A stretch of 64,000 nt of DNA from an uncultured Collinsella sp. (GTDB lineage Bacteria; Actinomycetota; Coriobacteriia; Coriobacteriales; Coriobacteriaceae): assembly GCA_900541685.1 (NCBI GenBank), contig UQKM01000003.1, forward strand, positions 69,576-133,575, written 5' to 3'. The notes under the pieces are model-generated. The model saw nothing but the letters and a program-made list of their open reading frames with translations. It was not told where the DNA came from and ran no database searches. Positions within the stretch are counted from its first letter, which is position 1; each line of letters begins with the position of its first letter. Positions 4,677 through 18,043 of the stretch are shown here, piece after piece. The translations under genes and the position numbers were made by a program.

Positions 4677-6556
4677 ATGCTCAATAATCACGAGGCCAAT
4701 CTAACCGACGAGGAGGCTGCCGCCGAGGTCGCCCGTGTCGCGAAGACCTACCCCGTGGTACGTTTGCTGTCGGCCGACCAGATAACGGGCGATCCCAACT
4801 GCCTGCTCGCCGGCGATCGGTGTCCCTGTCTGCGCCAGTCAGGTCTGGAGGTCTTGGCAGGTTCCGGTGAGGTGTCGGAACGGCTGCTCAACGATGGCGT
4901 TGAGTACCGCGCTCGCTTGCGCCCTCTGAAGGTCGAGGGCGAGCCTCACGTCCTGCTGATGGTGCGTCCGATTGATGAACAGGAGACTGCAGAAGAGGAC
5001 CTTGTCTACACCGACGTGCTGACGAACGTGCGCAATCGCCGATATTACGAGGAAAAGCTTCGCAGCGCCCGCATGCAGGCCGGTGTGGCCATGATCGACC
5101 TTGATGATTTTAGGGCCTTCAACGATACGTATGGCCGCCATGCCGGCGACCTTGCGCTTGGTGCCGTGGCGACGGCCATACGCAGCGGTGTTCGTTCGAC
5201 TGACGAGCTTGTGCGTTTTGGCTGCGATAAGTTTGTGGCCGTCATGCCCAATATTCCCTCTGATGACTTTGCCCGTCGTCTGCGTCAAGTATCCGATGCC
5301 GTTCATTCCACGATTATTCCGGGGCATGAGCGCGTTAGCTTGACGGCATGCGTTGGTGGCGTTCGCATTAATGGCGAAACGGTCGATGAGGGCGTTAGCC
5401 AGGCTGTCCAATTATTGAGCCGCGCTAAGGCAAAAGCCGGTACAGTCGTGACCGATGCCGAATCCATCGAGGCCTTCCAAAGCGAAAAGCCTACGGTGCT
5501 TATTGTCGATGACTCCGAGATGAACCGAGCCATTCTCAACGAGATGCTCAAGGACGAGTATTGCATCCTCGAGGCCGATAACGGTCGCGCGGCGCTCGAC
5601 ATGGTCGACCGCTATGGCGATGAGTTGTCGCTCGTGCTGCTGGACATTGTCATGCCGGGCATGAACGGCTTTGAGGTGCTGGGCGATCTGTCGCGTCGAT
5701 CGAATATTGACAATTTGCCCGTCATCATGATCTCGAGCGAAGATTCCGACGAAGTGGTGCTGCGCGCGTATGAGCTGGGTGCCTCGGACTATGTCAACCG
5801 CCCGTTTGACTCCCGTGTCGTGCGCCGCCGTGTAAGCAACACCATCCGCCTGTACGCCAAACAGCGTCGTCTAACGAGCCTGCTGTCCCAACAGTACAAC
5901 GAGCGCGTCAAGAACAGCCGCATGCTCATTGACATCATGGCCGGCGTCATGGAGCTCCGCAATGGCGAGAGCGGCAGGCACGTTGCGAACATCGAGAAGC
6001 TGACCGAGCTACTGCTTGCCTGCCTGGTCCAGCGTAGCGACAACATCTCCCTCGACAACGAGGAGCGCTCCACGATTGCCCTGGCTTCGGCGCTGCACGA
6101 TATCGGCAAGATGTCGATTGACGATGCGATTCTCAACAAGCCCGGGCGCCTCACGCCCGAAGAGTTCGAGATTATGAAGACGCATACCACGATCGGCGCC
6201 GACATGCTGCGTGAGTTGGGTCGCCATCACGCCGGCAATGCGCTTATGGAATATGCGTACCAGATTGCGCCTGGCATCACGAGCGCTGGGACGGCAAAGG
6301 TTATCCCGACGGCCTTAAGGGCGACGATATTCCCATCGCCGCACAGGTGGTGTCGGTGGCTGACGTGTACGATGCGCTGACGAGCGTGCGCGTGTACAAG
6401 GATGCTATTCCGCACGAGGAGGCGATCCAGATGATCCTGGACGGCAAGTGCGGTACCTTTAACCCGCTGCTGCTCGACTGCCTGCTCGAGGTGCAAGACC
6501 GTATTGCCGAAACATTGGCGCGCCCCGCCGAGGTCGTTGCGCTTCCTACGATTTAG
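4677..6556 (+). CDS. degenerate GGDEF / REC receiver / HD-GYP c-di-GMP phosphodiesterase; apparent -1 frameshift near 6265-6280 splits it into ORFs 4677-6380 and 6347-6556
   Basis: GGDEF-domain core with RFGCDKF in place of GGDEF. REC domain (LIVDDSEMNR...LLDIVMPGMNG). HD-GYP motifs (HDIGK; HHERWDGKGYP...VADVYDALTS); the HHERWDG segment is read in frame +2 relative to the upstream part. Confidence 0.75.
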
Positions 6557-6579: not shown

Positions 6580-6936
6580 ATGATTTCCATGCGTGAGGCG
6601 TATGAGAAAATCGGCGCCAATTATGATGACGCTTGCACTCGGCTGATGGGCGAGGAGATGCTTGCCCGTTTTGCCCTCAAGTTTTTGGATGACGAGAGCA
6701 TGGACAAGCTGGAAGCTGCCATGGCGGCAGGAGACGCCAGGGAAGCGTTTATGGCGGCGCACACGCTCAAGGGCGTGAGCCAGAACCTGGGATTCGATAA
6801 TCTGTTCGAGCCGGCGGTCGTGGTGACCGAAGCGCTGCGCGGTGCCGATACTGTTGACGGCGCTCGTGAGGGAATGCATGCGCTGCAGCAGCAATATGCG
6901 GCCACGATGTCGGCCCTGCGCGAGGCGGCTGAATAA
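6580..6936 (+). CDS. Hpt (histidine phosphotransfer) domain protein
   Basis: AHTLKGVSQNLG matches the Hpt HxxKG phosphorylatable-His motif. SD AAAGGAG present. Confidence 0.75.
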   Translation: MISMREAYEKIGANYDDACTRLMGEEMLARFALKFLDDESMDKLEAAMAAGDAREAFMAAHTLKGVSQNLGFDNLFEPAVVVTEALRGADTVDGAREGMHALQQQYAATMSALREAAE

Positions 6937-6962
6937 GAGCTTACGTGCATTGTGATGACTAT

Positions 6963-7026
6963 GAGCGTGGATAATCTCCCGTTTTAGGCCCGGTGGCGGT
7001 CTCAAAGTGGGAGATTATCCACGCTC
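6963..7026. repeat. 18-bp perfect inverted repeat (GAGCGTGGATAATCTCCC / GGGAGATTATCCACGCTC) with 28-nt loop
   Basis: Read directly from the sequence. It begins 27 nt after the Hpt stop, at the high-GC / lower-GC transition. Confidence 0.8.
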
Positions 7027-7141
7027 GTTCGGTAAGTGTCCAAAAATTCACTCTCGCGCACTGGCGGGGCTTTCCGCATGCAATCCATATCGTTGTTCGA
7101 TAAACTATTCGGATAACGATAGATTCGATGAGGGTGAGTGT

Positions 7142-7702
7142 ATGTCCAACAGCGTTCAGCGTATGGCCAAGGCGGGCGAGACTGTAAGGAAGCTTGGCTT
7201 TTGCATGGCGGTCGTTTTTGCGGGAATGCTCGTCGCTTTTGCCGCGTTGGTTGTTTACGTGATCTGGTATGCGGTTGCAAACGTTGTTTCTGTCGATTCT
7301 TTCGGTGTCGTGACGCTTCTCGATGGCGGGAGCATCGTTATCCCAAGCGGGCTGTGCCTGGCACTCGTCGTGAGTGTTTCGCTTGTCGTTTTGTGCGGAA
7401 TCAGCCGTGACATTTCGCGGGGCGTATCGCCCTTTACCAGGGCGCATGTGCGGCTTATCCGTGTTCTCGCGCTTGCCTTTGCTGTTAACGCCGCGGTTTC
7501 GCTTGTTGGTGCCTATGGATCGGTCAATCTTACCATTGGTGGGCTGGAGCTTTGCGTCGTGCCTCATTCCTTCGTTATCGCGATTTGCCAGGGCGTTGCC
7601 TTTGACGCGGGGTCGCTTATCGGCGCGGCCGTCTGTTTGTTTGTCTCGGTGATCTGGAGCTATGCCTCGCTGCTCCAGGAGCAGTCTGACGAGCTTGTGT
7701 AG
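7142..7702 (+). CDS. DUF2975-like small polytopic membrane protein
   Basis: About 4 TM helices and about 186 aa. Immediately upstream of a YozG-type XRE regulator, which is the classic DUF2975/HTH pairing. Start at the ATG after GAGGGTGAG. Confidence 0.6.
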   Translation: MSNSVQRMAKAGETVRKLGFCMAVVFAGMLVAFAALVVYVIWYAVANVVSVDSFGVVTLLDGGSIVIPSGLCLALVVSVSLVVLCGISRDISRGVSPFTRAHVRLIRVLALAFAVNAAVSLVGAYGSVNLTIGGLELCVVPHSFVIAICQGVAFDAGSLIGAAVCLFVSVIWSYASLLQEQSDELV

Positions 7703-7710
7703 GAGGAAAC

Positions 7711-8040
7711 ATGAGCTATCTCATCATCGAGCTTGAGACGCAGCTGCTTAAGACCGGAAAGACCAGCTCTGATCTGATTCGTGCCACGGGGCATACTCCG
7801 GCTAATATTTCTAAGCTAAGAAATGGAAAAATTAAAGCTATTCGTCTTAAGACGCTTCTTGAAATCTGTGATGAGCTTGATTGTCAACCGGGAGATATTA
7901 TTCAGCGCGTGAGCGAGAAAGAGCTCGAGGAACTTATTGTCGAGCGCGCGAAGAATGCCGTGAGGCAGATGCGGGATGGCAGAGGCAATGAGGCGTCGCT
8001 TCCGACATCGGTCTTCGCTGTAGATTTGAGCGACGAGTAG
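7711..8040 (+). CDS. XRE-family helix-turn-helix transcriptional regulator (YozG-like)
   Basis: HTH segment DLIRATGHTPANISKLRNGK. Strong SD GGAGGAAAC. Lower GC than the flanking DNA. Confidence 0.8.
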   Translation: MSYLIIELETQLLKTGKTSSDLIRATGHTPANISKLRNGKIKAIRLKTLLEICDELDCQPGDIIQRVSEKELEELIVERAKNAVRQMRDGRGNEASLPTSVFAVDLSDE

Positions 8041-8185
8041 CATAAAAAGAACAACTATAACGAAATATCAGTGTAACGGAACCCGTGTCTAACACGGATT
8101 CTTTGTTTATTAATTATCTTGACAAATATAAGTTATCGGCAAACAATAACATCAAGAACGAACGATAAAAGAAAGGAGGAACGAT

Positions 8186-8314
8186 ATGAGCTGGATTGTA
8201 AAGCCGAGTTATGTGGACCCCGGTGGTGGGTGCAACGGTTACTGCAAGGCATTCTGTGGAGCACGCGTCTGCGTCAATAACTGCAGCAAAAACTTGTGTG
8301 TTGTTAATTTCTAG
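8186..8314 (+). CDS. 42-aa six-cysteine RiPP precursor peptide candidate (MSWIVKPSYVDPGGG-CNGYCKAFCGARVCVNNCSKNLCVVNF)
   Basis: Below the ORF-track length cutoff. Strong SD AAAGGAGGA 6 nt upstream. Leader ends in GGG, then the core carries six Cys spaced every 3-4 residues. Followed by a stem-loop plus T-run, with a rSAM/SPASM enzyme and ABC transporters downstream. Confidence 0.6.
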   Translation: MSWIVKPSYVDPGGGCNGYCKAFCGARVCVNNCSKNLCVVNF

Positions 8315-8322
8315 CAGTTGCA

Positions 8323-8362
8323 GCTGCTGCCAGGCGACAGTCTGGCAGCAGCGGTTTTGTTA
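8323..8362 (+). terminator. intrinsic terminator/attenuator between precursor peptide and downstream ABC genes
   Basis: 11-bp stem GCTGCTGCCAG/CTGGCAGCAGC, loop GCGACAGT, then GGTTTTGTTAT. Confidence 0.6.
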
Positions 8363-8382
8363 TCAAGCAGAATAGGAGGCCA

Positions 8383-9108
8383 ATGAGCGCATCAGCGATA
8401 AAGCTATCAAAGGTGTCAAAGCGCTATGGAAAACGGTGTGTGTTGCATGACGTTTCCTTCGAGGTGAATCAGTCTGAACTTTGCGCCCTTGTTGGTGCAA
8501 ACGGGGCGGGCAAAAGCACGCTTATTAAAATAGTGCTGGGCCTCTGTGAGCCATCGTCGGGGAGCGTGGAGCTCTTTGGAGGCAAGTCGAAAAAAGAGCT
8601 GAGCCTGATGCGTACGCGTGTCGGCTATGTGCCAGATTCCAGCGGAGCATACCAATCCCTCAGTGCGGTGGAGAATCTTCGGATCCGATGTGCGGAATGG
8701 GGGCTCGATGAGACACGTGAGGTTCCTCGCGTCTTGGGCCTAGTCGGGCTGGACGTCGATGAGAAAAAGAGCGTGAGCAGTTTTTCTCTGGGAATGAAAC
8801 GGCGACTGGATATAGCTACGGCTTTGTTGGGCGACACCGATGTACTAATTTTCGATGAGCCGGCAAATGGGTTGGACCCGCTGGGCATCGAGAGTATATG
8901 GGCCCTTATCGGCCGATTGAATCGAGAACAGGGTAAGACCATGCTCATCTCTAGCCATGATTTGGATGAGTTGGCATCGGTTGCAACAAGTTGCGTGTTT
9001 CTTCATGACGGCGAACTGCTAAAAAAGGAATCGATGGACGTCATAAGGGATGGGGCGTCGTCCCTAAAAGAGTATTACAGGCGCTTGATGAAGGCGGTCT
9101 CGCTATGA
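8383..9108 (+). CDS. ABC transporter ATP-binding protein (immunity-type, ABC-2 partner)
   Basis: Walker A GANGAGKST, signature and Walker B motifs. SD AGGAGG. Confidence 0.9.
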   Translation: MSASAIKLSKVSKRYGKRCVLHDVSFEVNQSELCALVGANGAGKSTLIKIVLGLCEPSSGSVELFGGKSKKELSLMRTRVGYVPDSSGAYQSLSAVENLRIRCAEWGLDETREVPRVLGLVGLDVDEKKSVSSFSLGMKRRLDIATALLGDTDVLIFDEPANGLDPLGIESIWALIGRLNREQGKTMLISSHDLDELASVATSCVFLHDGELLKKESMDVIRDGASSLKEYYRRLMKAVSL

Positions 9109-9929
9109 AGCGGGCGATCCATCCCATAAAGGCGGACATGATGCGTTTACACAGGATGTTTCCGGCGCAGTTTTGTCTTGCGCTTATGCTGGCGTTCGGC
9201 CTTCTCTTCGGTGTCTTTCTAAAAAGCGGAACAACGTTGCTAGCCTTTGGCAATAGCGTCTGCGGGGAGGATATTGGATTCTTTTGGAATGTAATCGACT
9301 CTTCTGCACCTGATGAGTCCCTTGTGCGCAGTGCTTTTGCTGGCACCTCTCTGTTCGTTCCGCTCATCGTTTGCCTGGTGATTTTACAGGAGCGCGGCTA
9401 TGAAGAGGGATGCCGAATTTCTTCAGCAAGAGGTCTTGCCCGCTTTAACGGGGTTCTGGCACATGTACTTTCGTCTGCTTTAATAATCGGCGCAGCATAT
9501 AGTGCGCTTTGCCTTCTTCTTTTTGCAATAGCCGTAACACGTGGAGGGCAAAACTACGTGCATGGCATGCTGGCTGCATTTTTGCCTGCGATGATAATCA
9601 ACGCCGTATTGGTGATATCGGTTGCGTTGGAGACGATGACCATCTATCGGATTACAGACAGCGCTGTATTGAGCGGGGCTGTAATAATAATTGGATTTGT
9701 CATGAGCTTGACGCTCTACGGAACCTTCCTTCAGGCACCTATACCATCCTTGCGATGGATCTTCCTCCTTCCGGGGCCGTACCTTGGAGCCGGATGTGCC
9801 CTTGGGTATAGCGATATGGGGCAGCTGACGCTTCTGGGATATGGCGTGGCAGCTGGCTGTCTATCGGTATTGATTTACGCTCTCGTGACCTGTCGTGTCG
9901 GAGGTGTGCTCAATGGCTCGTCAGATTAA
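9105..9929 (+). CDS. polytopic membrane protein, ABC-2-type permease candidate
   Basis: ATGA start/stop overlap with the ATPase gene; about 6 predicted TM segments. Confidence 0.55.
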   Translation: MKRAIHPIKADMMRLHRMFPAQFCLALMLAFGLLFGVFLKSGTTLLAFGNSVCGEDIGFFWNVIDSSAPDESLVRSAFAGTSLFVPLIVCLVILQERGYEEGCRISSARGLARFNGVLAHVLSSALIIGAAYSALCLLLFAIAVTRGGQNYVHGMLAAFLPAMIINAVLVISVALETMTIYRITDSAVLSGAVIIIGFVMSLTLYGTFLQAPIPSLRWIFLLPGPYLGAGCALGYSDMGQLTLLGYGVAAGCLSVLIYALVTCRVGGVLNGSSD

Positions 9930-10731
9930 AAGGTTCCTCCATTCAGAATTGAAGCATGTGAGCGAATGGACGTACGTCTTAATCCTGGCAATTTATGCGT
10001 GTATGGTGATATTGCAGCTTAATTCTTTCCCGATGTGGTTCTGTAGCCTCCGCGAGGGCAGTTTCTTGGGCTTTTTCCCAGACCCGACGCTTAAACTGTC
10101 GGCAGAGGACGCCCTTCTATTTGGTAATGCAGAGGTTTTTCGCGGCTTGCTGTTCAATGTGGCCCCGTTGGCTCATGCATTGTTCTTTCCGCTTATCGCG
10201 CCTTGCGTTGTCCCACGCTTTGCCAGTTCGAGCTTTGTCGAGGAACCGTGGGGGCTGTCGGAGGCTCGGGGAGGGAAGCGGGCGTGCGTTACCGTTGCGC
10301 GAGTGATGCTGTCTTCTTTCGCCCTATTGGGCGCGTTTATCCTGTCAAGTGTCGTTTTGTACTGTCTTAACTGCGCAATCGTTTTGGATGCTCAACAGTA
10401 TTTCAACCTGAATATGTTTTGCGATCGACTTCTTCTGGCGAGTGCGGTCTGCCTTGCATACGTGGTCTCTTGCGTGATCGTTGTTTCCTATTTTGGATCC
10501 GGCTTCGGTCCTATTGGCATGCTGTTGCTTGTCAACGTCGTAACGATCTACATACAGGTCGGAGCCAATTCCATGCTTCCGCTTCCAGCCTCGATGCTCA
10601 TGTGGATTTGCGGCGTGACCCCGTTGGGGGACGGTCAATGCGTTTCGATTTTAATTGACTGCCTCATAAACGTAGCAAGCGTTTTTGCCATCTGCTTTAC
10701 GGTCGACCGATTGCGGTCGAGATTTCTTTGA
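9913..10731 (+). CDS. polytopic membrane protein, second permease candidate
   Basis: Start re-called to the ATG after GGAGGTG. Hydrophobic throughout. Confidence 0.5.
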   Translation: MARQIKRFLHSELKHVSEWTYVLILAIYACMVILQLNSFPMWFCSLREGSFLGFFPDPTLKLSAEDALLFGNAEVFRGLLFNVAPLAHALFFPLIAPCVVPRFASSSFVEEPWGLSEARGGKRACVTVARVMLSSFALLGAFILSSVVLYCLNCAIVLDAQQYFNLNMFCDRLLLASAVCLAYVVSCVIVVSYFGSGFGPIGMLLLVNVVTIYIQVGANSMLPLPASMLMWICGVTPLGDGQCVSILIDCLINVASVFAICFTVDRLRSRFL

Positions 10732-10752
10732 TTGTTTGTGAGGGATAAACAT

Positions 10753-12045
10753 ATGAGGCCGTCTCAATACAACCTGATTGAAGACCACGGCGAAAGAACG
10801 CTGGTGATGAATTCAAAGACTGGCGCAATCCTTTCGTTGGATAAACAACATGCAGAAAGTATGTGCCGCATGGTATCGGGAACCGAATGGGAGCCAGATG
10901 AATTGCGCGAAGCGTTGCTTCAAGGAGGAATGCTGTTAGAAGATGATCGTGACGAAAAAGAGGAAATGAAGGCGATGGGCCGTCTTGTTCGATTTTCCAA
11001 TCGCTCTCTAGGCATGACGATAGCACCGACATTGGAGTGCAACTTCTGTTGCCCATACTGTTATGAAAAAGGACAACGCAAAACGACAATGACTCCGGAG
11101 GTTGAAGACCGGCTTGTCTCATTCGTGAAGGAGCGTTCACGGGGGCTGAGCGAGCTTGAGATCGGTTGGTATGGTGGAGAGCCGTTGCTGCAAGTCGATA
11201 GAATTCAGCGGCTTACGGAGCGTATAAAGGCGATCCTTAATCCAGAGTGCTCCTATTCGGCATCCATCGTTACAAATGGATATCTTCTGACGCCAGAAGT
11301 GGCCGAGACTCTCGCGGCTTGTGACGTCAAGATGGCTCAAATAACCTTGGACGGGTCTCGAAAGGACCACGATTCTCGGCGGTTCTTGCGGAACGGACAG
11401 CCGACGTACGATGCGATTCTAGACAACGTTTCTAAAGTCACGCATCTGTTGGATATTTCCATCAGGTGCAATGTCGATGCCCATAACATTGTCGGTGCTG
11501 GCGATTTGCTGGATGCACTCGAGGAAAAGGGCCTTAAAAACAAGGTTGGATTCTATCTGGCGCCTGTCGACAATATTAACGATACGTGCCCAAGTGACAG
11601 TAGTTGTTTTTCGATGGAGGCGTTTTCTCAGGAAGAGCTGGACTTTTATAGTCATGCAGTTGATAGGGGGTTCCACGTTGACCTGACGGTGCGCTTTAAT
11701 CCGGCTATATGTGGCGCCGTTTGTGCAGGGTCGTTTGTAGTGGATCCGGAGGGCTATCTTTATAAATGTTGGGACGAAATCGGGATGCGTGAACGCTGCG
11801 TCGGTACGCTTGCCGAAGGGCCGAGGATGAATGCTCAGCTGGTCCAATGGCTAAACTATGAGCCGAGCGATCATGAGTGTGAAGAGTGTTTTGCCTATCC
11901 CTCATGCATGGGAGGTTGCCCTAATCACGCTCTTCATGGAGGGTCAAAACAGTGCGTATCTCAAAGGTATCAGGTGCGCCAACGAATGATTTTGACCGAG
12001 AAGGCTCAGCGATTGCTTTCGGAACTGGATTCAGCTCATGTTTAA
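10753..12045 (+). CDS. radical SAM/SPASM peptide-modifying enzyme with N-terminal RRE-like domain (sactipeptide/ranthipeptide-type maturase)
   Basis: CNFCCPYC rSAM cluster motif. C-terminal Cys-rich SPASM region (CGAVCAGS...KCW...CEECFAYPSCMGGCPNH). About 90-aa N-terminal beta-strand/helix segment consistent with a PqqD-like recognition element (RRE). Start at the ATG 7 nt after GAGGGA. Confidence 0.85.
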   Translation: MRPSQYNLIEDHGERTLVMNSKTGAILSLDKQHAESMCRMVSGTEWEPDELREALLQGGMLLEDDRDEKEEMKAMGRLVRFSNRSLGMTIAPTLECNFCCPYCYEKGQRKTTMTPEVEDRLVSFVKERSRGLSELEIGWYGGEPLLQVDRIQRLTERIKAILNPECSYSASIVTNGYLLTPEVAETLAACDVKMAQITLDGSRKDHDSRRFLRNGQPTYDAILDNVSKVTHLLDISIRCNVDAHNIVGAGDLLDALEEKGLKNKVGFYLAPVDNINDTCPSDSSCFSMEAFSQEELDFYSHAVDRGFHVDLTVRFNPAICGAVCAGSFVVDPEGYLYKCWDEIGMRERCVGTLAEGPRMNAQLVQWLNYEPSDHECEECFAYPSCMGGCPNHALHGGSKQCVSQRYQVRQRMILTEKAQRLLSELDSAHV

Positions 12046-13657
12046 TCTCTGCGCAAGAACAATAATTAAGAATCCAAAGTATATAACCTATCTTCTAATG
12101 TGCCTGCTCTCGCTTGTGGTTGGTCTCGCAATTCCTTTTCTGACGGGACAACTGGTCAACAACTTTGTCGGTGTCGCGCGAGATGGGGAAAGCGCAATCG
12201 CCATCGGCGCTGAGATAGCAGCGCTGGGTATTGTGCGAGCCGGTTTGAATTGCGTCAGTGAGCTGGTCTATGTCGATCTGCAAACACATGTGGGATTTGC
12301 ATTGAATGAAGAGGTGATAAGTCACGTTCAAAGGCTACCACGGGTCTTCTTTTCTAATTTTGATGCCTCATATTGCAACCAACAGATTAATCATGACGCT
12401 AACGATTTGGTGATATTTGTTATAAACGCAAGTGTCCAAAGCGTGAGCAATATAGTGACGTTGCTTGTGGTGTTTGTTGTCCTGGCGACCATAAACGGTC
12501 ACCTGGCAATGCTGTGTATGGCTCTTGGCTTAATAGGTGGCGCGGTCTATTCGCTTTTCAAAAAGTGTTTGTTCGCAAGAAGTTTCGAGGCTCAAGAGCA
12601 GGAGGCTCGATTCTTTTCCGATCTGGAGAAGCAGCTTAGCAACGCACAATTTATCCGCAGACATGTTCTATTCGAGGTTTTCAAGCAAAGGCTTGAGCAC
12701 TCTTTTGCAGAGCTATATCGTTGCGTTTATCAGAACCAGCAAATTAATGCGACCTTTACGTTTGCCAACACTGTCGTCACATCTTTGGCACAGGGTGGAA
12801 TCTTGATCCTGGGCGCAAAGGAAGTTCTCGACGGCAATTTGCTGCCCGGCTATCTTATGACGGCGCTAAGCTATTACTCCTATTATTCTTCGGCTATTGA
12901 ATTCTTCCTTGCGCTGGGCAAGGACTATCAAACGTCAAAAGTATCCTACGAGCGTTTACGGCGCTTGCTGGACATGCCAGAGGGCTCAAACGGGGCCATT
13001 ATCCTCGCCGATGTTTTCGAGGTGAGCTGTTCCGAGCTGGCGTATAGCTATCCTGAGTCTGAAAAAACCGCGTTCAGAGACATTCGAGCTTCTTTGGAAA
13101 AAGGAAAGGTATACGGAATCGTTGGGCCGAACGGTTCCGGTAAGAGCACGCTGCTGGATGTGATAAGCGGTTGCGATCCAGAAAACTGCAAGGGTGATAT
13201 TTGGATTAACGACAAGCCCCTGAGCTCTCTGGACCGCTATGCGCTGCGGAAGCGCAATATCGGGATTACTGAGCAGGAGCCGCCCCTGACCGAGGGGTCG
13301 ATACGGGACAATTTAACTCTTTGCTGCAGAAGCACTGAAGAGCGTGACCTTGAGAGCCTCATTGAGAGAATGGGGCTTAAAAAGATGGTCGATTCAAGTG
13401 GTGGACTTGATGTCGAGCTGGACGATAAGCAGAACAACATTTCAGGAGGGGAGAAGCAAAAAATGGCGATAATTCGCCAGCTGCTGAAAAACCCGGACGT
13501 GATGATGTTTGATGAGCCGACATCTGCACTTGACAGTCAAAGCAAGCAGGCGTTTATCGAAATCCTTAAGGAAAGAAAGGGGCGACATATCACGGTCATC
13601 GCTACGCACGACCCTGTGCTTATTTCGGCATGCGATGAGGTGATTGAAATTGCCTGA
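12038..13657 (+). CDS. fused ABC transporter permease/ATP-binding protein (exporter type, no C39 peptidase domain)
   Basis: N-terminal 6-TM domain. C-terminal GPNGSGKST, LSGGEKQK and DEPTSALD motifs. ATG overlaps the maturase stop. Confidence 0.9.
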   Translation: MFNLCARTIIKNPKYITYLLMCLLSLVVGLAIPFLTGQLVNNFVGVARDGESAIAIGAEIAALGIVRAGLNCVSELVYVDLQTHVGFALNEEVISHVQRLPRVFFSNFDASYCNQQINHDANDLVIFVINASVQSVSNIVTLLVVFVVLATINGHLAMLCMALGLIGGAVYSLFKKCLFARSFEAQEQEARFFSDLEKQLSNAQFIRRHVLFEVFKQRLEHSFAELYRCVYQNQQINATFTFANTVVTSLAQGGILILGAKEVLDGNLLPGYLMTALSYYSYYSSAIEFFLALGKDYQTSKVSYERLRRLLDMPEGSNGAIILADVFEVSCSELAYSYPESEKTAFRDIRASLEKGKVYGIVGPNGSGKSTLLDVISGCDPENCKGDIWINDKPLSSLDRYALRKRNIGITEQEPPLTEGSIRDNLTLCCRSTEERDLESLIERMGLKKMVDSSGGLDVELDDKQNNISGGEKQKMAIIRQLLKNPDVMMFDEPTSALDSQSKQAFIEILKERKGRHITVIATHDPVLISACDEVIEIA

Positions 13658-13687
13658 CGGGTTAGTGGGCCTAGCATATCAAATTCA

Positions 13688-13721
13688 GGGGGGCGGGCAC
13701 TGTAGCTGGTGCCCGCCCCCC
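13688..13721. terminator. GC-rich hairpin between convergent genes (13-bp stem GGGGGGCGGGCAC/GTGCCCGCCCCCC)
   Basis: Read directly. No strong T-run on either side; it marks the island's downstream edge. Confidence 0.5.
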
Positions 13722-13756
13722 TGGCATGAAAGGCTTTAGCCTGTGTGGTTCGTGAA

Positions 13757-14566
13757 CTAACGGGCCTGCTTAACCTTGGCCGCTGCTTCGACAAACGACT
13801 TCCACAGGTTAAAGTCGGTCTCGAGCGTCTTCCACGTGTACTCAGGGTGCCATTGCACGCCCAAGCAGAATGGCTGGCCTTCGACCTCGATGCACTCGGG
13901 AACGCCGTCGGTTGCCTTGGCGACCAAACGCGTGCTCTTACCCAGATGATCGACGCAGCAGTGGTGTGCGGAGTTGGTCTGGATCAGCCTGTGCCCGCCA
14001 AGCGCGCGCTCCAACAGCGAGCCCGGCACGACCTCGACGGGATGCACGGGGTCGTTGAGCACGTGGCTATGGCGCCACTGCGTGCGGCCCTCGCGAGCGC
14101 CCAGGCTCGGCACGTCCATGCACAGGGTGCCGCCAGTGGCGACATTGAGCAACTGCGTGCCGCGGCAGGTGGTAAAGAGCGGCTTTTTGGCGCGGAGTAC
14201 CTCGCCGACCAGCTTAAACTCAAAGCTATCGCGGATCTCGCAGCAGAGGGTGGGGTCGTAGGGTCGATCATCGCCCCAACGTTTGGGGTTGACATCGGGG
14301 CCGCCGGGAATGGCGATGCCGTCGGCGATATCGACGTAATGACGGATGACCTCAATGTCCTCGGTGATGGACATCTGCAGCGGCAGGCCGCCGGCGGCAA
14401 GGATGGCATCGACAAAGACACTTGCGATTTCCTCGTTGGGGGAGAGCGTTTCGCTTAAAAACGGCTTCGCCTCTTCCCAGCGCGGCGCCACCAGGATGAG
14501 CGGACGGTCGGCGGGGTCGACGTTGACGTGCGGGGTGTATGACGATGAAGTGCGAGTTCCGATCAT
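13757..14566 (-). CDS. class I glutamine amidotransferase-like / gamma-glutamyl hydrolase (peptidase C26, PuuD-like)
   Basis: GATase-1 catalytic Cys region (TCRGTQLLNVATGG) and His near the C-terminus. Start taken at MIGTRT; it cannot extend past the glnQ stop at 14619. Confidence 0.7.
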   Translation of the reverse strand: MIGTRTSSSYTPHVNVDPADRPLILVAPRWEEAKPFLSETLSPNEEIASVFVDAILAAGGLPLQMSITEDIEVIRHYVDIADGIAIPGGPDVNPKRWGDDRPYDPTLCCEIRDSFEFKLVGEVLRAKKPLFTTCRGTQLLNVATGGTLCMDVPSLGAREGRTQWRHSHVLNDPVHPVEVVPGSLLERALGGHRLIQTNSAHHCCVDHLGKSTRLVAKATDGVPECIEVEGQPFCLGVQWHPEYTWKTLETDFNLWKSFVEAAAKVKQAR

Positions 14567-14618
14567 AGGTGTTGCTTTCGAGTTTGGATGGTCATGGCGA
14601 GCGGATATGGCAATTGGG

Positions 14619-15383
<765 letters not shown>

Positions 15384-15419
15384 GGTGCTCGGCTCCTTAT
15401 GACTCGAAATGGTAAATCG

Positions 15420-16253
15420 TTAGCGAATGATGGTCGCGCCGGTCTTGTGCGAAACGTAGACAGCGGCCTTGTTGATTGCGACGTTGATGAGGATATAGAT
15501 GACCGCGATCACCAGGTAGACCGACACGAGGGCGTCGTAGTTGGTAATGAGCACGCGGGCGTTTTGCATAAGGTCGGGGTAGCTCACCACGTAGGCGACG
15601 GTGGTGTCTTTGACGACGACTACAAGCTGCGAAATCAACGACGGAATAATAAATCGAATAGCCTGCGGCAGCACGATTTTAAAGGTGATTTTAGCCTTGG
15701 AGAGACCGAGCGCCTGGGCGGCCTCGACCTGGCCGCGCGGCACGGCGTTTACGCCGGCGCGGAAGATCTCGGCAAGCACGCCGGCTGCAGCGAGCGCGAC
15801 GGGAAGCGTAAGCATCCAAAACGACGGCAGCGCGATCTTGTACTGGGGCAGCACCAAAAAGAAGAAGTAGATGAACAGCAGGCTCGGCACGCCGCGGAAG
15901 AAATCGGTGAGCACGCGGCAGACCAGCTGCAGCGGCTTAATGTCGCTGGTGCGACCGAGCATAAGGGCAAGGCCGAGCACCAGCGCGATGGCGCCGGCGG
16001 TGAGCGCGACCTTAACGGTGCCCTCAAAGCCGGCAAGCAAAAACTTCCAGGTGGTGAGGTGCGTAAAGAAGTACCAGTAATGGACCGAAAGCTGGCCGGT
16101 CACATAAAAGCGCTGCAGTACCAGAGCGATGAGCGCGGCCACGGCAACAAGTGAGATGGCGGTGCCGACGCGAATCTTGGCGCGCATCTTGGGGCCGGGA
16201 GCCTCGTAGAGCGCATCGCGCATGGTGAGCGCGGAGGTGGAGTGCTTGCTCAT
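15420..16253 (-). CDS. amino-acid ABC transporter permease
   Basis: His/Gln-permease family EAA-loop region; polytopic. Confidence 0.85.
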   Translation of the reverse strand: MSKHSTSALTMRDALYEAPGPKMRAKIRVGTAISLVAVAALIALVLQRFYVTGQLSVHYWYFFTHLTTWKFLLAGFEGTVKVALTAGAIALVLGLALMLGRTSDIKPLQLVCRVLTDFFRGVPSLLFIYFFFLVLPQYKIALPSFWMLTLPVALAAAGVLAEIFRAGVNAVPRGQVEAAQALGLSKAKITFKIVLPQAIRFIIPSLISQLVVVVKDTTVAYVVSYPDLMQNARVLITNYDALVSVYLVIAVIYILINVAINKAAVYVSHKTGATIIR

Positions 16254-16909
16254 CGGAGGATCCTCACCTTCTTATCGATATAGTTGCCAATGTGGCTCAC
16301 CACAAAGGCCGTGCCCAGGTAGCCGAGCGCCGAGATAAAGAACGCGGCGACGCCGCCGAGCGAGCGCGTGTTGATGTAGCTCACCACGCCGGTGAGCTCC
16401 TGCGGTTTAAGCGGCACCTGACTGCCGAGCGCGGTGGTGAGCATGACGGCGATAAAGAGGTTGGTCATGGGCAGCACGCTCGAGCGCAGCGCCTGCGGAA
16501 TCACGATCTTGGCGAGGATACGGCTGAAGCTCATGCCCAGCGAGCGGGCGGCTTCCACCTGGCCGACACCGACGGTGTTGATGCCGCTCATAAAGTTCTC
16601 GGAGCCAAAGGCAGAACCCAAGAGCACTGTGGCGACGATGACGCAGGTGCGGTAGGGCAGGACGACCTTGAGCGGCGGCAGCGCGTAGACGACGATAATG
16701 AGCAGCGCGATGCCGGGGATGTTACGGAAGACCTGGACATACAGGTCGCCAAAGACGCGCAGCGGCTTGAGCGGCGACACGCGCATCACGGTGACGGCGA
16801 CGGCCAGCACCATGGCGATGGCAAACGACTCAAGCGTCATGCCCCAGGTTGCTAGCAGCGCGTCGATATAGTTCTGGCCATAGAGCGACCAGAGTTCGGA
16901 GAGACTCAT
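16250..16909 (-). CDS. amino-acid ABC transporter permease
   Basis: Second permease subunit; its start overlaps the downstream gene by 4 nt. Confidence 0.85.
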   Translation of the reverse strand: MSLSELWSLYGQNYIDALLATWGMTLESFAIAMVLAVAVTVMRVSPLKPLRVFGDLYVQVFRNIPGIALLIIVVYALPPLKVVLPYRTCVIVATVLLGSAFGSENFMSGINTVGVGQVEAARSLGMSFSRILAKIVIPQALRSSVLPMTNLFIAVMLTTALGSQVPLKPQELTGVVSYINTRSLGGVAAFFISALGYLGTAFVVSHIGNYIDKKVRILR

Positions 16910-17047
16910 GCGGACCTCCCGCCGGTAAGGAAAGGGGCTCCCGTGTGTACGGAAGCCCCGACAACTCAGTGAGGAAACAGTTTACCGCAATAAAGCGCAT
17001 CATGCGTTTCCATATGGTTTCGTTGCGGCCGTTACCAGGCTCGCTGC

Positions 17048-18043
17048 CTAGGCGCCGATCTCGGGCAGCTCGGGAACATTGGTGTCGCCCGTACGGTCAC
17101 CGATGCAGATCTGCCACAGCTCAGTCCAGGTGCCGTCGTCCTCGATCTTCTTAAGGAAGTCGTTAACGAAGGTGACGCCGTCGGAATCGAGCGGCAGACC
17201 GATACCATAGGGCTCCTTGCTGCCGAAGGGCTTGCCGGCGATCTTGTACTTACCGGGCTCGCGGACCAGGGCGCTCTGCTGCATGTTGTTATCGATGACG
17301 TAGGCGTCAACGCGGCCCTGCTGGAGTGCCTGGCGGGCCTCCTCGTCGGTCTTGAACTCCTGCTGGCTGGCCTTGGGAGCGAACTCCTCCAGGATGGCGG
17401 GGCCGTTGGAGCCGGACTGGACGGCGACGTTCTTGTCGGCCAGGTCGTCGACGCTCTTGATGTCGTCGTTATCGGCGAGCACCAGGATGGCCTGCTGGGT
17501 GTAGTAGTAGGGGCCGGCGAAAGAGACGAGCTTCTTGCGCTCGTCAGTGATGGTGTAGGTGGCAAAGACGGCGTCGACCTGGCCATTCTGCAGGACGGAC
17601 TCGCGCGTGTCCGAGGTCACCTGGGTGATCTCGACCTTGTTCTCGCCCAGAATGTAGTTGGACAGGAGCTGTGCGATACCGGCGTCGAAGCCGCGGGTCT
17701 GACCGTCTTTCTCGTTGAGGAGGGAGAAGAGCGTGGAGGTCTGAACGCCACCGATCTTAAAGACGCCGGCGTCCTTGACGGCCGTGGCCCAGGTGCTGGC
17801 GGCGATGGCATCGTCATCGGCCTTGGGGCCGTTGTCGACGAGCTTGTCGAATGCCTTGGCGTCGAGCGTGGTGGAAACTTCGGTATCCTCGGAGCTCTTG
17901 GAGGAGCCGGCGGCGGAACCCTTGTCAGCCTCGGCGCTGGTGTCGGAGCAGCCGGCAAGACCAAGGCCGGCGACGGTTGCGAAGGTGGCGGCAACGAAGC
18001 CGCGGCGGTCGAGAACGACCTGCTGGGAGAGGTTCTTGCTCAT
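17048..18043 (-). CDS. amino-acid ABC transporter substrate-binding lipoprotein
   Basis: LAGC lipobox and periplasmic-binding-protein family 3 fold. Confidence 0.85.
   Translation of the reverse strand: MSKNLSQQVVLDRRGFVAATFATVAGLGLAGCSDTSAEADKGSAAGSSKSSEDTEVSTTLDAKAFDKLVDNGPKADDDAIAASTWATAVKDAGVFKIGGVQTSTLFSLLNEKDGQTRGFDAGIAQLLSNYILGENKVEITQVTSDTRESVLQNGQVDAVFATYTITDERKKLVSFAGPYYYTQQAILVLADNDDIKSVDDLADKNVAVQSGSNGPAILEEFAPKASQQEFKTDEEARQALQQGRVDAYVIDNNMQQSALVREPGKYKIAGKPFGSKEPYGIGLPLDSDGVTFVNDFLKKIEDDGTWTELWQICIGDRTGDTNVPELPEIGA

Follow-up and report, generated by a model that had tools for sequence, protein, structure and literature searches.

What does a small radical-SAM (S-adenosylmethionine) gene cluster in an uncultured Collinsella sp. 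make, and what is it for, when some close relatives keep only part of it and others have none? From this organism, a member of the aerofaciens group, we analyzed a 64-kb stretch of DNA (here called the window; all coordinates count from its first letter). A preliminary description of the stretch had proposed a cluster for a ribosomally synthesized and posttranslationally modified peptide (RiPP), with a radical-SAM/SPASM enzyme, immunity, and export. That proposal is borne out by the motifs of the maturase, a conserved precursor, a trio of ATP-binding cassette (ABC) transporter genes, and a separate exporter. From the comparisons described here, we consider it likely that the cluster is a bacteriocin-type island, i.e., that it makes, exports, and protects against a small, cross-linked, Cys-rich peptide. 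Within this reading, the island was most likely acquired horizontally, and related Collinsella strains are the most likely targets of the peptide. For the immunity part of the reading, three allelic states of the locus provide the strongest evidence.

The island is 6.8 kb long, and all eight of its genes are intact in the window. Its limits were set at 6953 and 13741 because contigs with an empty site (L097 and L099) join window position 6952 to 13742, with ∼74 bp of unrelated sequence between. GC content is 47 to 52% in the island versus 58 to 63% in the flanks, ∼10 points lower. No target-site duplications or repeats of ≥8 bp were found at the island ends. The genes are ordered small membrane protein, HTH_26 regulator, peptide(s), ATPase, membrane subunit 1, membrane subunit 2, maturase, and exporter, and this eight-gene order is identical in Collinsella and Olsenella loci whose maturases are 46 to 57% identical to that of the window. 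These loci lie in unrelated genomic contexts, with type IV secretion system, integrase, and toxin-antitoxin genes as neighbors. Since the order is common to the 46 to 57% clades, the unit starts upstream of position 8041, where the preliminary description had begun the locus: it opens ∼1.1 kb earlier, at 6953, and includes the membrane-protein and HTH_26 genes (7142 to 7702 and 7711 to 8040), a pair that had been missed. The six genes, the 42-amino-acid (42-aa) Cys-rich open reading frame (ORF), and the hairpin already described were all found intact and in place. Successive junctions from the ATPase to the exporter gene are a 4-nt overlap, a 17-nt overlap, a 21-nt gap, and an 8-nt overlap. 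An identical maturase is also encoded on metagenome contigs of up to 129 kb, and no further precursor-like ORFs were found within the 64-kb window. The features of the island are as follows (TM, transmembrane segments; TMD-NBD, transmembrane domain fused to nucleotide-binding domain; RRE, RiPP recognition element; rSAM, radical SAM; AF2, AlphaFold2).

6953..13741, no strand: whole island, present in the window and missing from otherwise collinear Collinsella contigs
7142..7702, plus strand: small membrane protein, 186 aa, ∼4 to 5 hydrophobic segments; first gene of the cassette, conserved
7711..8040, plus strand: HTH_26 (Cro/C1-type) helix-turn-helix regulator, 109 aa (PF13443 at E = 1.5e-17)
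8083..8105, plus strand: terminator-like hairpin CCGTGTCTAACACGG, then a T-rich tail, 3' of the regulator gene
8119..8147, plus strand: promoter-like TTGACA-17-AACAAT, a consensus match only (10/12 consensus positions)
8133..8149, plus strand: operator-like inverted repeat TTATCG-N5-C[GA]ATAA (right half CAATAA in the window), overlapping the -10 element
8186..8314, plus strand: precursor peptide, 42 aa, MSWIVKPSYVDPGGGCNGYCKAFCGARVCVNNCSKNLCVVNF, with leader MSWIVKPSYVDPGGG and a six-Cys core
8323..8362, plus strand: stem-loop with a short T-tract between the precursor and ATPase genes, proposed to be a leaky terminator or an mRNA-stabilizing element
8383..9108, plus strand: ABC ATPase, LanF-like (PF00005 at 2.2e-29; best NCBIfam match, TIGR03740)
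9105..9929, plus strand: membrane subunit 1 of the ABC trio, 274 aa, ∼6 TM (from hydropathy and paralogy)
9913..10731, plus strand: membrane subunit 2 of the ABC trio, 272 aa, ∼6 TM (from hydropathy and paralogy)
10753..12045, plus strand: rSAM-SPASM peptide maturase with an RRE-like N-terminal domain, 430 aa (PF04055, TIGR04085, invariant Cys, and AF2 model)
12038..13657, plus strand: ABC half-transporter (TMD-NBD), the proposed peptide exporter (PF00664 and PF00005)
13686..13723, no strand: 15-bp GC-rich palindromic terminator between the exporter gene and a convergent Peptidase_C26 gene, kept in immunity-only alleles

A genome neighborhood comparison had been suggested as a way to see whether the locus is strain specific. 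Among Collinsella contigs encoding an identical flanking Hpt protein, the site either carries the full island, is empty, or carries an immunity-only allele; the locus is strain variable. The immunity-only allele, the product of two precise deletions, lacks window positions 8192 to 8349 (the precursor gene after ATGAGC, together with the hairpin stem) and also 10754 to 13669 (the maturase and exporter genes). Left behind are the precursor ribosome-binding site with ATGAGC (two codons), the terminator T-tract, and the maturase ribosome-binding site, and because these scars of the precursor, terminator, and maturase remain, the allele descends from the full cassette. In it, the precursor ATG reads in frame into the ATPase gene, with a called product of 253 aa. 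The same deletion junctions are present in loci 98% and 91% identical to the window. All five retained genes, i.e., the regulator pair and the ABC trio, are intact, and their dN/dS ratios of 0.04 to 0.32 indicate that they are under purifying selection. That the trio is kept intact under such selection without the production genes supports a role in self-protection. It also bears out the earlier distinction between an immunity-type ABC trio and a separate exporter: the trio persists alone when the production genes are deleted, and the full island has its own TMD-NBD exporter.

Sequence counts and sampled contexts point to partial loci as a frequent condition. In all 7 contexts shown, the two abundant subunit-1 clusters sampled, P0185 (258 index blocks) and P0183 (53 blocks), had the immunity-only allele. 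Clustered at 90% identity, subunit 1 is split into at least 177 groups, and the best 120 of these hold ∼11,900 sequences, versus ∼1,640 sequences for the maturase (two full-length clusters at ≥89% identity, plus fragments); immunity-only therefore appears to be the commoner state, at a prevalence that is rough, as assembly fragmentation and gene length both influence such counts. Full cassettes decay as well: the maturase gene carries nonsense mutations or frameshifts in 4 of 10 species-representative Collinsella genomes with a full cassette (L020, L023, L025, and L065, with the maturase at ∼8001 to 9290 of the locus). In a further locus (L101) the maturase is 15 aa short, in L065 the precursor is also truncated, and the exporter ORF is intact in all five. 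Locus L100, compared to window positions 7142 to 10731, is 100% identical in the membrane-protein gene, 94 to 96% in the HTH and ATPase genes, and 99.5% in both permease genes, a mosaic that suggests recombination inside the cassette between strains.

Turning to the proteins that would confer protection, the best match of the ATPase is TIGR03740, the lantibiotic-protection ATPase model (181.4 bits; cut-off, 309.75). LanF proteins carry a Glu in place of the Q-loop Gln, forming an E-loop (bioRxiv 10.1101/2025.10.09.681468). At this position the window ATPase has Asp85, and Asp is also found in the Collinsella clades (VGYVPD, IGYMPD, and IGFVPD); orthologues in Blautia and Lachnospiraceae (Firmicutes) have Glu (IGCLIE and AGAMIE). 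The two membrane subunits are paralogous to each other (hhalign probability, 97.6%; E = 4.7e-12). Subunit 2 was taken to start at ATG 9913, the listed ORF starting at GTG 9895. Subunit 1 diverges fast between clades, and a profile search with its diverged orthologues returned the same close clade only, with no Pfam-annotated distant relatives. The predicted permease role of both subunits rests on operon coupling, topology, and paralogy. By score cut-offs the trio falls outside the LanFEG families, and by architecture and genetics it is LanFEG-like.

The 42-aa ORF begins 6 nt downstream of an AAGGAGG ribosome-binding site and encodes six Cys with the spacing C-x3-C-x3-C-x4-C-x3-C-x4-C. Peptides homologous to it are encoded at the corresponding position in Olsenella and in those Collinsella clades whose maturases are 46 to 57% identical. 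At this position we found MDWINEPEEGVAPACGNCFFYAHGGCTKRCPNQSCTFRF and MEWITEPSAGAEPMCNNCFFYAHGSCSTKCSSQECTIRF in the 53% clade (the latter often as two tandem genes), MNWVIDPCSNVQGGGSGGCRNYHPCSRCSCFGVYVHF in the 46% clade, and MEYIQKPVNTQMPASSRDISTCVSCAAHICWSYSGGGPCGLRICITKFCGWNYS in a 39% Collinsella clade. What the family members share is an N-terminal leader motif, M-x-[WFY]-I-x-x-P, ahead of a multi-Cys core that varies. The motif recurs near 34 to 42% identical maturases in Lachnospiraceae, Eubacteriales, a gammaproteobacterial metagenome-assembled genome, Halanaerobiales (5 tandem precursor copies), Paraclostridium (9 copies, starting MKFIKKPARKFEEG), and others. In the clade of at least 91% identity, the 15-residue leader and the six Cys are invariant and 8 other core positions vary; across clades, Cys are the only strictly conserved core residues. 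Because homologous peptides hold the same position beside maturases that are only 34 to 57% identical, the small ORF is not a chance one. The Cys-rich precursor proposed upstream of the maturase is upheld by this shared position, leader, and set of Cys in distant loci, and these comparisons place it in a conserved peptide family whose leader is invariant, whose Cys are conserved, and whose core is hypervariable. Against the Clo7bot peptide model TIGR04333, the window peptide gave a weak, whole-length match (E = 0.036; 13.9 bits, below the cut-off of 31).

Two details of the original account of the peptide did not survive. The precursor had been called unannotated, and metagenome gene callers do call the ORF. 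It had also been credited with a GG-leader junction. GG before the first Cys is not kept in the family: the preceding residues are AAA, EPM, or APA in other clades, and GG is absent from the 52 to 57% clades. The membrane domain of the exporter starts at residue 17, with no match to a C39 peptidase domain, and a double-glycine system with a peptidase-containing ABC transporter (PCAT) was rejected on both counts. Copy number of the precursor gene also varies. Two tandem, diverged five-Cys precursor genes lie between the HTH and ATPase genes in the 52 to 57% Collinsella clades (L011, L013, L014, L028, and L046), and the more distant loci L091 and L093 have 5 to 9 tandem precursor copies.

The maturase has the expected elements of a radical-SAM/SPASM peptide-modifying enzyme, as the preliminary description had it. 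The radical-SAM motif CxxxCxxC (C96-x3-C100-x2-C103) is invariant in 29 homologues, and the match to PF04055 (53.7 bits) passes the cut-off of 29.5. A nonfunctional SPASM domain would have told against the proposal; instead, the TIGR04085 SPASM model is passed (47.8 bits; cut-off, 27), and the seven-Cys motif for two auxiliary 4Fe-4S clusters (C320-x13-G-x4-C339, C376-x2-C379-x5-C385-x3-C389, and C401), together with an upstream C285, is complete and invariant in the same 29 homologues. An AF2 model (pLDDT 90) has N-terminal strands at residues 7 to 12, 15 to 20, and 26 to 29 and helices at 31 to 42, 49 to 57, and 68 to 80. This three-strand, three-helix domain is RRE-like in the model and is predicted to bind the leader; no Pfam PqqD match to the maturase was found. 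The closest solved protein is CteB, both by sequence (E = 1.3e-16) and by fold (Foldseek E = 3e-19). The Foldseek alignment spans 446 to 460 columns for the 430-residue query at ∼19 to 20% identity, which suggests that it covers the CteB N-terminal domain too.

Family models place the enzyme near, and outside, several curated groups. The six top NCBIfam matches are all maturases of Cys-rich peptides: TIGR04463 (the best, 295.3 bits; cut-off, 525), the Clo7bot maturase TIGR04334 (280.4 bits; cut-off, 600), CefB (219 bits; cut-off, 600), geopeptide (211 bits; cut-off, 400), FlmE/OhkG, and PapB (129 bits; cut-off, 340). Lower scores were obtained with the SCIFF (six-cysteines-in-forty-five) maturase TIGR03974 (85.9 bits; cut-off, 425), the not_ScfB model (71 bits; cut-off, 855), anSME (69 bits; cut-off, 349), QhpD (66 bits; cut-off, 453), and the RumMC sactisynthase (50 bits; cut-off, 720), those to anSME and QhpD being weak matches. 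By these scores the maturase lies between the TIGR04463 and Clo7bot families and passes neither cut-off. Ten homologues of 40 to 54% identity also fail the curated cut-offs (275 to 342 bits on TIGR04463), and the whole maturase clade is therefore in un-modelled space.

The upstream region suggests how the cassette may be controlled. The promoter-like site is among the two best consensus matches in the scanned region (6900 to 13900), and its -35 TTGA is kept in all clades. The operator-like repeat occurs once in the window, where shuffles predict 0 matches. It recurs at the same relative position in the ≥91%, 52%, 54% (L046), and 46% clades and in immunity-only alleles, and in the 46% clade it is a perfect palindrome. 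HTH_26 is the most conserved cassette protein across clades (61 to 72% identity versus 42 to 57% for the maturase and exporter), and its gene is retained in immunity-only alleles. We infer that it binds the putative operator and represses the precursor promoter. A positional orthologue of the small membrane protein (29 to 35% identity) was found in the clades with 46 to 57% identical maturases, always beside the HTH gene; the protein gave no match in Pfam or NCBIfam even at E ≤ 10. The hairpin after the regulator gene is at the same position in all clades. Between the precursor and ATPase genes, the second hairpin has a 13-bp stem (8323 to 8352) followed by GGTTTTGTT, and its predicted folding energy is -35 kcal/mol (z = -4.6; 0/200 shuffles fold as well). 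It is deleted in immunity-only alleles, and a GC-rich stem-loop is present 3' of the last precursor gene in the folded loci of the 52 to 54% clades (L011, L013, and L028).

Together, these features can be arranged into a proposed sequence of events. The promoter at 8119 to 8147, overlapped by the palindromic operator, would drive the 42-aa precursor gene, with the operator presumably bound by the HTH_26 regulator of the cassette acting with its membrane-protein partner. The stem-loop after the precursor gene would let only some transcripts continue into the five downstream genes. The RRE-like domain of the maturase would bind the leader at M-x-W-I-x-x-P, and its radical-SAM cluster and two SPASM auxiliary clusters would cross-link the core, the most likely products being intramolecular Cys thioethers of the sactipeptide type, in which the sulfur is bonded to the alpha carbon of an acceptor residue, or of the ranthipeptide type, in which it is bonded to a beta or gamma carbon. 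The TMD-NBD ABC protein would then export the product, and the ATPase with its two paralogous 6-TM proteins would form a LanFEG-like F2EG transporter that protects the producer. Thioether cross-linking is proposed from homology to maturases of Cys-rich peptides and from the strictly conserved Cys; leader removal and antimicrobial activity are likewise proposals.

Several observations weigh against the bacteriocin reading or against parts of it. The ATPase falls below the TIGR03740 cut-off and has Asp rather than Glu at the Q-loop position. Neither membrane subunit has a permease-family match in Pfam or NCBIfam, even at E ≤ 10, and an AF2 model of subunit 1, made with homologues of 83 to 96% identity, has a pLDDT of 39 and is unusable. 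The number of Cys differs by clade (6, 5, and 4 to 5), the C-x3-D/E acceptor motifs known from freyrasin are missing from the core, and the island encodes no leader protease. As no curated equivalog cut-off is reached by the maturase, what it catalyzes cannot be read off from a characterized enzyme. The roughness of the immunity-only prevalence also counts here.

One alternative concerns the chemistry. The locus could be a RiPP locus whose enzyme forms C-C or C-O links to aromatic residues or epimerizes the peptide, with the Cys forming disulfides or binding metal. Such an enzyme would fit the position of the maturase outside every curated family, and fold-related SPASM enzymes include SuiB (C-C cross-link), ChlB, TigE, and EpeE (epimerase); aromatics also recur in the cores (Y19, F23, and F42 in the window and FFY or WIY in the 52 to 57% clades). 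Nevertheless, all six of the best NCBIfam families are maturases of Cys-rich peptides, including the ranthipeptide enzyme PapB; the closest solved enzyme, CteB, forms thioethers; and Cys, not aromatics, are strictly conserved in the core across clades. We regard nonthioether chemistry as unlikely.

A second alternative keeps the chemistry and changes the purpose: the modified peptide would be a quorum-sensing-type signal, sensed by the membrane protein and HTH pair and handled or removed by the trio. Ranthipeptides have been linked to quorum sensing in Clostridia. The conserved regulator pair and operator of the cassette would suit such a system, and strains that keep the regulator and trio yet have lost production could be listeners. 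On the other hand, a hypervariable core follows an invariant leader, the membrane subunits are fast diverging, and the ATPase is LanF-like with an acidic Q-loop residue. Production has been lost repeatedly with the trio kept under purifying selection, and a receiver would not obviously need an ATP-driven F2EG transporter. Given the hypervariable core, fast-diverging subunits, LanF-like ATPase, and repeated loss of production, the bacteriocin/immunity pattern fits better, and a signaling role seems quite improbable.

The remaining alternatives fare far worse. The preliminary description had called the cluster SCIFF-like, and the six Cys in ∼42 residues, the adjacent radical-SAM/SPASM enzyme, and the best solved relative, CteB, itself a SCIFF maturase, all invite that comparison. 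Model scores refute SCIFF membership, which we consider extremely improbable: the maturase reaches only 86 of 425 bits on TIGR03974 and 71 of 855 on not_ScfB, identity to CteB is ∼19 to 20%, and the leader motif, Cys spacing, and gene context differ. The SCIFF peptide model (TIGR03973) gave no match to the precursor at E ≤ 10, a search in which HMMER filters may hide very weak matches. Equally improbable is an enzyme for a non-RiPP substrate (an anSME-like sulfatase or QhpD-like quinohemoprotein subunit) beside a fortuitous small ORF, which we rejected despite the weak anSME and QhpD matches, since neither sulfatase nor qhp genes are present in the island, distant loci share the position, leader, and Cys of the small ORF, and the immunity-only allele has lost the precursor along with the maturase.

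The island can be set beside known systems. Its nearest relatives by maturase score are TIGR04463 (rSAM_vs_C_rich) and Clo7bot, NCBIfam-defined and uncharacterized radical-SAM/SPASM systems acting on short Cys-rich peptides. They supply the best full-length maturase matches (295 and 280 bits), the window peptide weakly fits the Clo7bot model, and the M-x-[WFY]-I-x-x-P leader is shared with tandem arrays near 34 to 35% identical maturases. In contrast to these systems, the maturase scores fall far short of the two cut-offs (525 and 600 bits), one precursor gene is present in the window in place of an array, and the cassette adds the LanFEG-like trio, an exporter, and the regulator pair. PapA/PapB (freyrasin) and CteA/CteB (thermocellin, a SCIFF) share the rSAM-SPASM architecture, with a probable RRE in the window enzyme, and a multi-Cys core; they differ in that their model cut-offs are not reached, C-x3-D/E motifs are absent, and the island includes dedicated immunity and export genes.

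The overall logic of the island is that of the sactipeptide loci of subtilosin (sbo-alb), thuricin CD (trn), and ruminococcin C, which combine a short-leader precursor, a radical-SAM/SPASM maturase, and ABC export or immunity in one operon and whose products are antagonistic peptides of Gram-positive gut or soil bacteria. Unlike those loci, the island has a low sactisynthase score (RumMC), a different precursor family, and an actinobacterial host (Coriobacteriia). The trio resembles LanFEG (NisFEG and NukFEG) in pairing one ATPase with two distinct, paralogous 6-TM subunits in an operon, in its best ATPase match (TIGR03740), in the acidic residue that replaces the Q-loop Gln, and in being kept alone as an orphan module. 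It departs from LanFEG in an ATPase score of 181 versus 310 bits, in Asp instead of Glu, in a cognate peptide that is no lanthipeptide, and in membrane subunits that match no MutE/MutG or ABC-2 model.

Some features at and beyond the island ends were also noted. Just inside the left end is an 18-bp perfect inverted repeat with a 28-nt spacer (6962 to 6979 and 7008 to 7025; GAGCGTGGATAATCTCCC and GGGAGATTATCCACGCTC). In the left flank, a response-regulator/GGDEF/HD-GYP gene that is one 626-aa gene in related contigs (e.g., L002 and L003) is split in the window into ORFs 4677 to 6380 (567 aa) and 6347 to 6556 (69 aa), probably by a frameshift. The right flank holds a Peptidase_C26/GATase gene (13757 to 14743, minus strand) and an amino-acid ABC importer operon (14619 to 17291), core genes that lie outside the island and also adjoin the empty site.

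Thousands of predicted sactipeptide and ranthipeptide clusters have been catalogued (PMC10288494), and gut metagenome surveys found in our literature search list clusters of these types generically. The searchable literature yielded no account of this system and none of the TIGR04463 or Clo7bot families, the hits being generic antiSMASH surveys or unrelated acronyms, and no bacteriocin system for Collinsella was found in the literature searched. The island is uncharacterized, and it leaves the known principles of RiPP biosynthesis and bacteriocin ecology unchanged. The maturase clade and precursor family lie outside all curated models, and the solution of one product would extend annotation to thousands of homologues, 4,402 proteins matching the maturase at E ≤ 1e-10.

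More tentatively, a further reading can be proposed in two joined parts, namely that a producer/immune-only/sensitive polymorphism at one site structures competition among Collinsella strains, and that the peptide family and its un-modelled maturase clade make an undescribed cross-link pattern or use an undescribed acceptor chemistry. Under the polymorphism part, the immunity ATPase would, after the two deletions, be expressed from the promoter, operator, and start codon of the precursor gene without an intervening attenuator. The human gut harbors Collinsella aerofaciens and its relatives as abundant commensals of great strain diversity, and a producer/immune-only/empty polymorphism in so prominent a gut genus raises the interest of the locus. 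The compact, intact eight-gene system comes with natural controls in the form of immunity-only and empty-site strains with near-identical flanks, with which peptide-mediated exclusion of strains in the gut could be tested directly.

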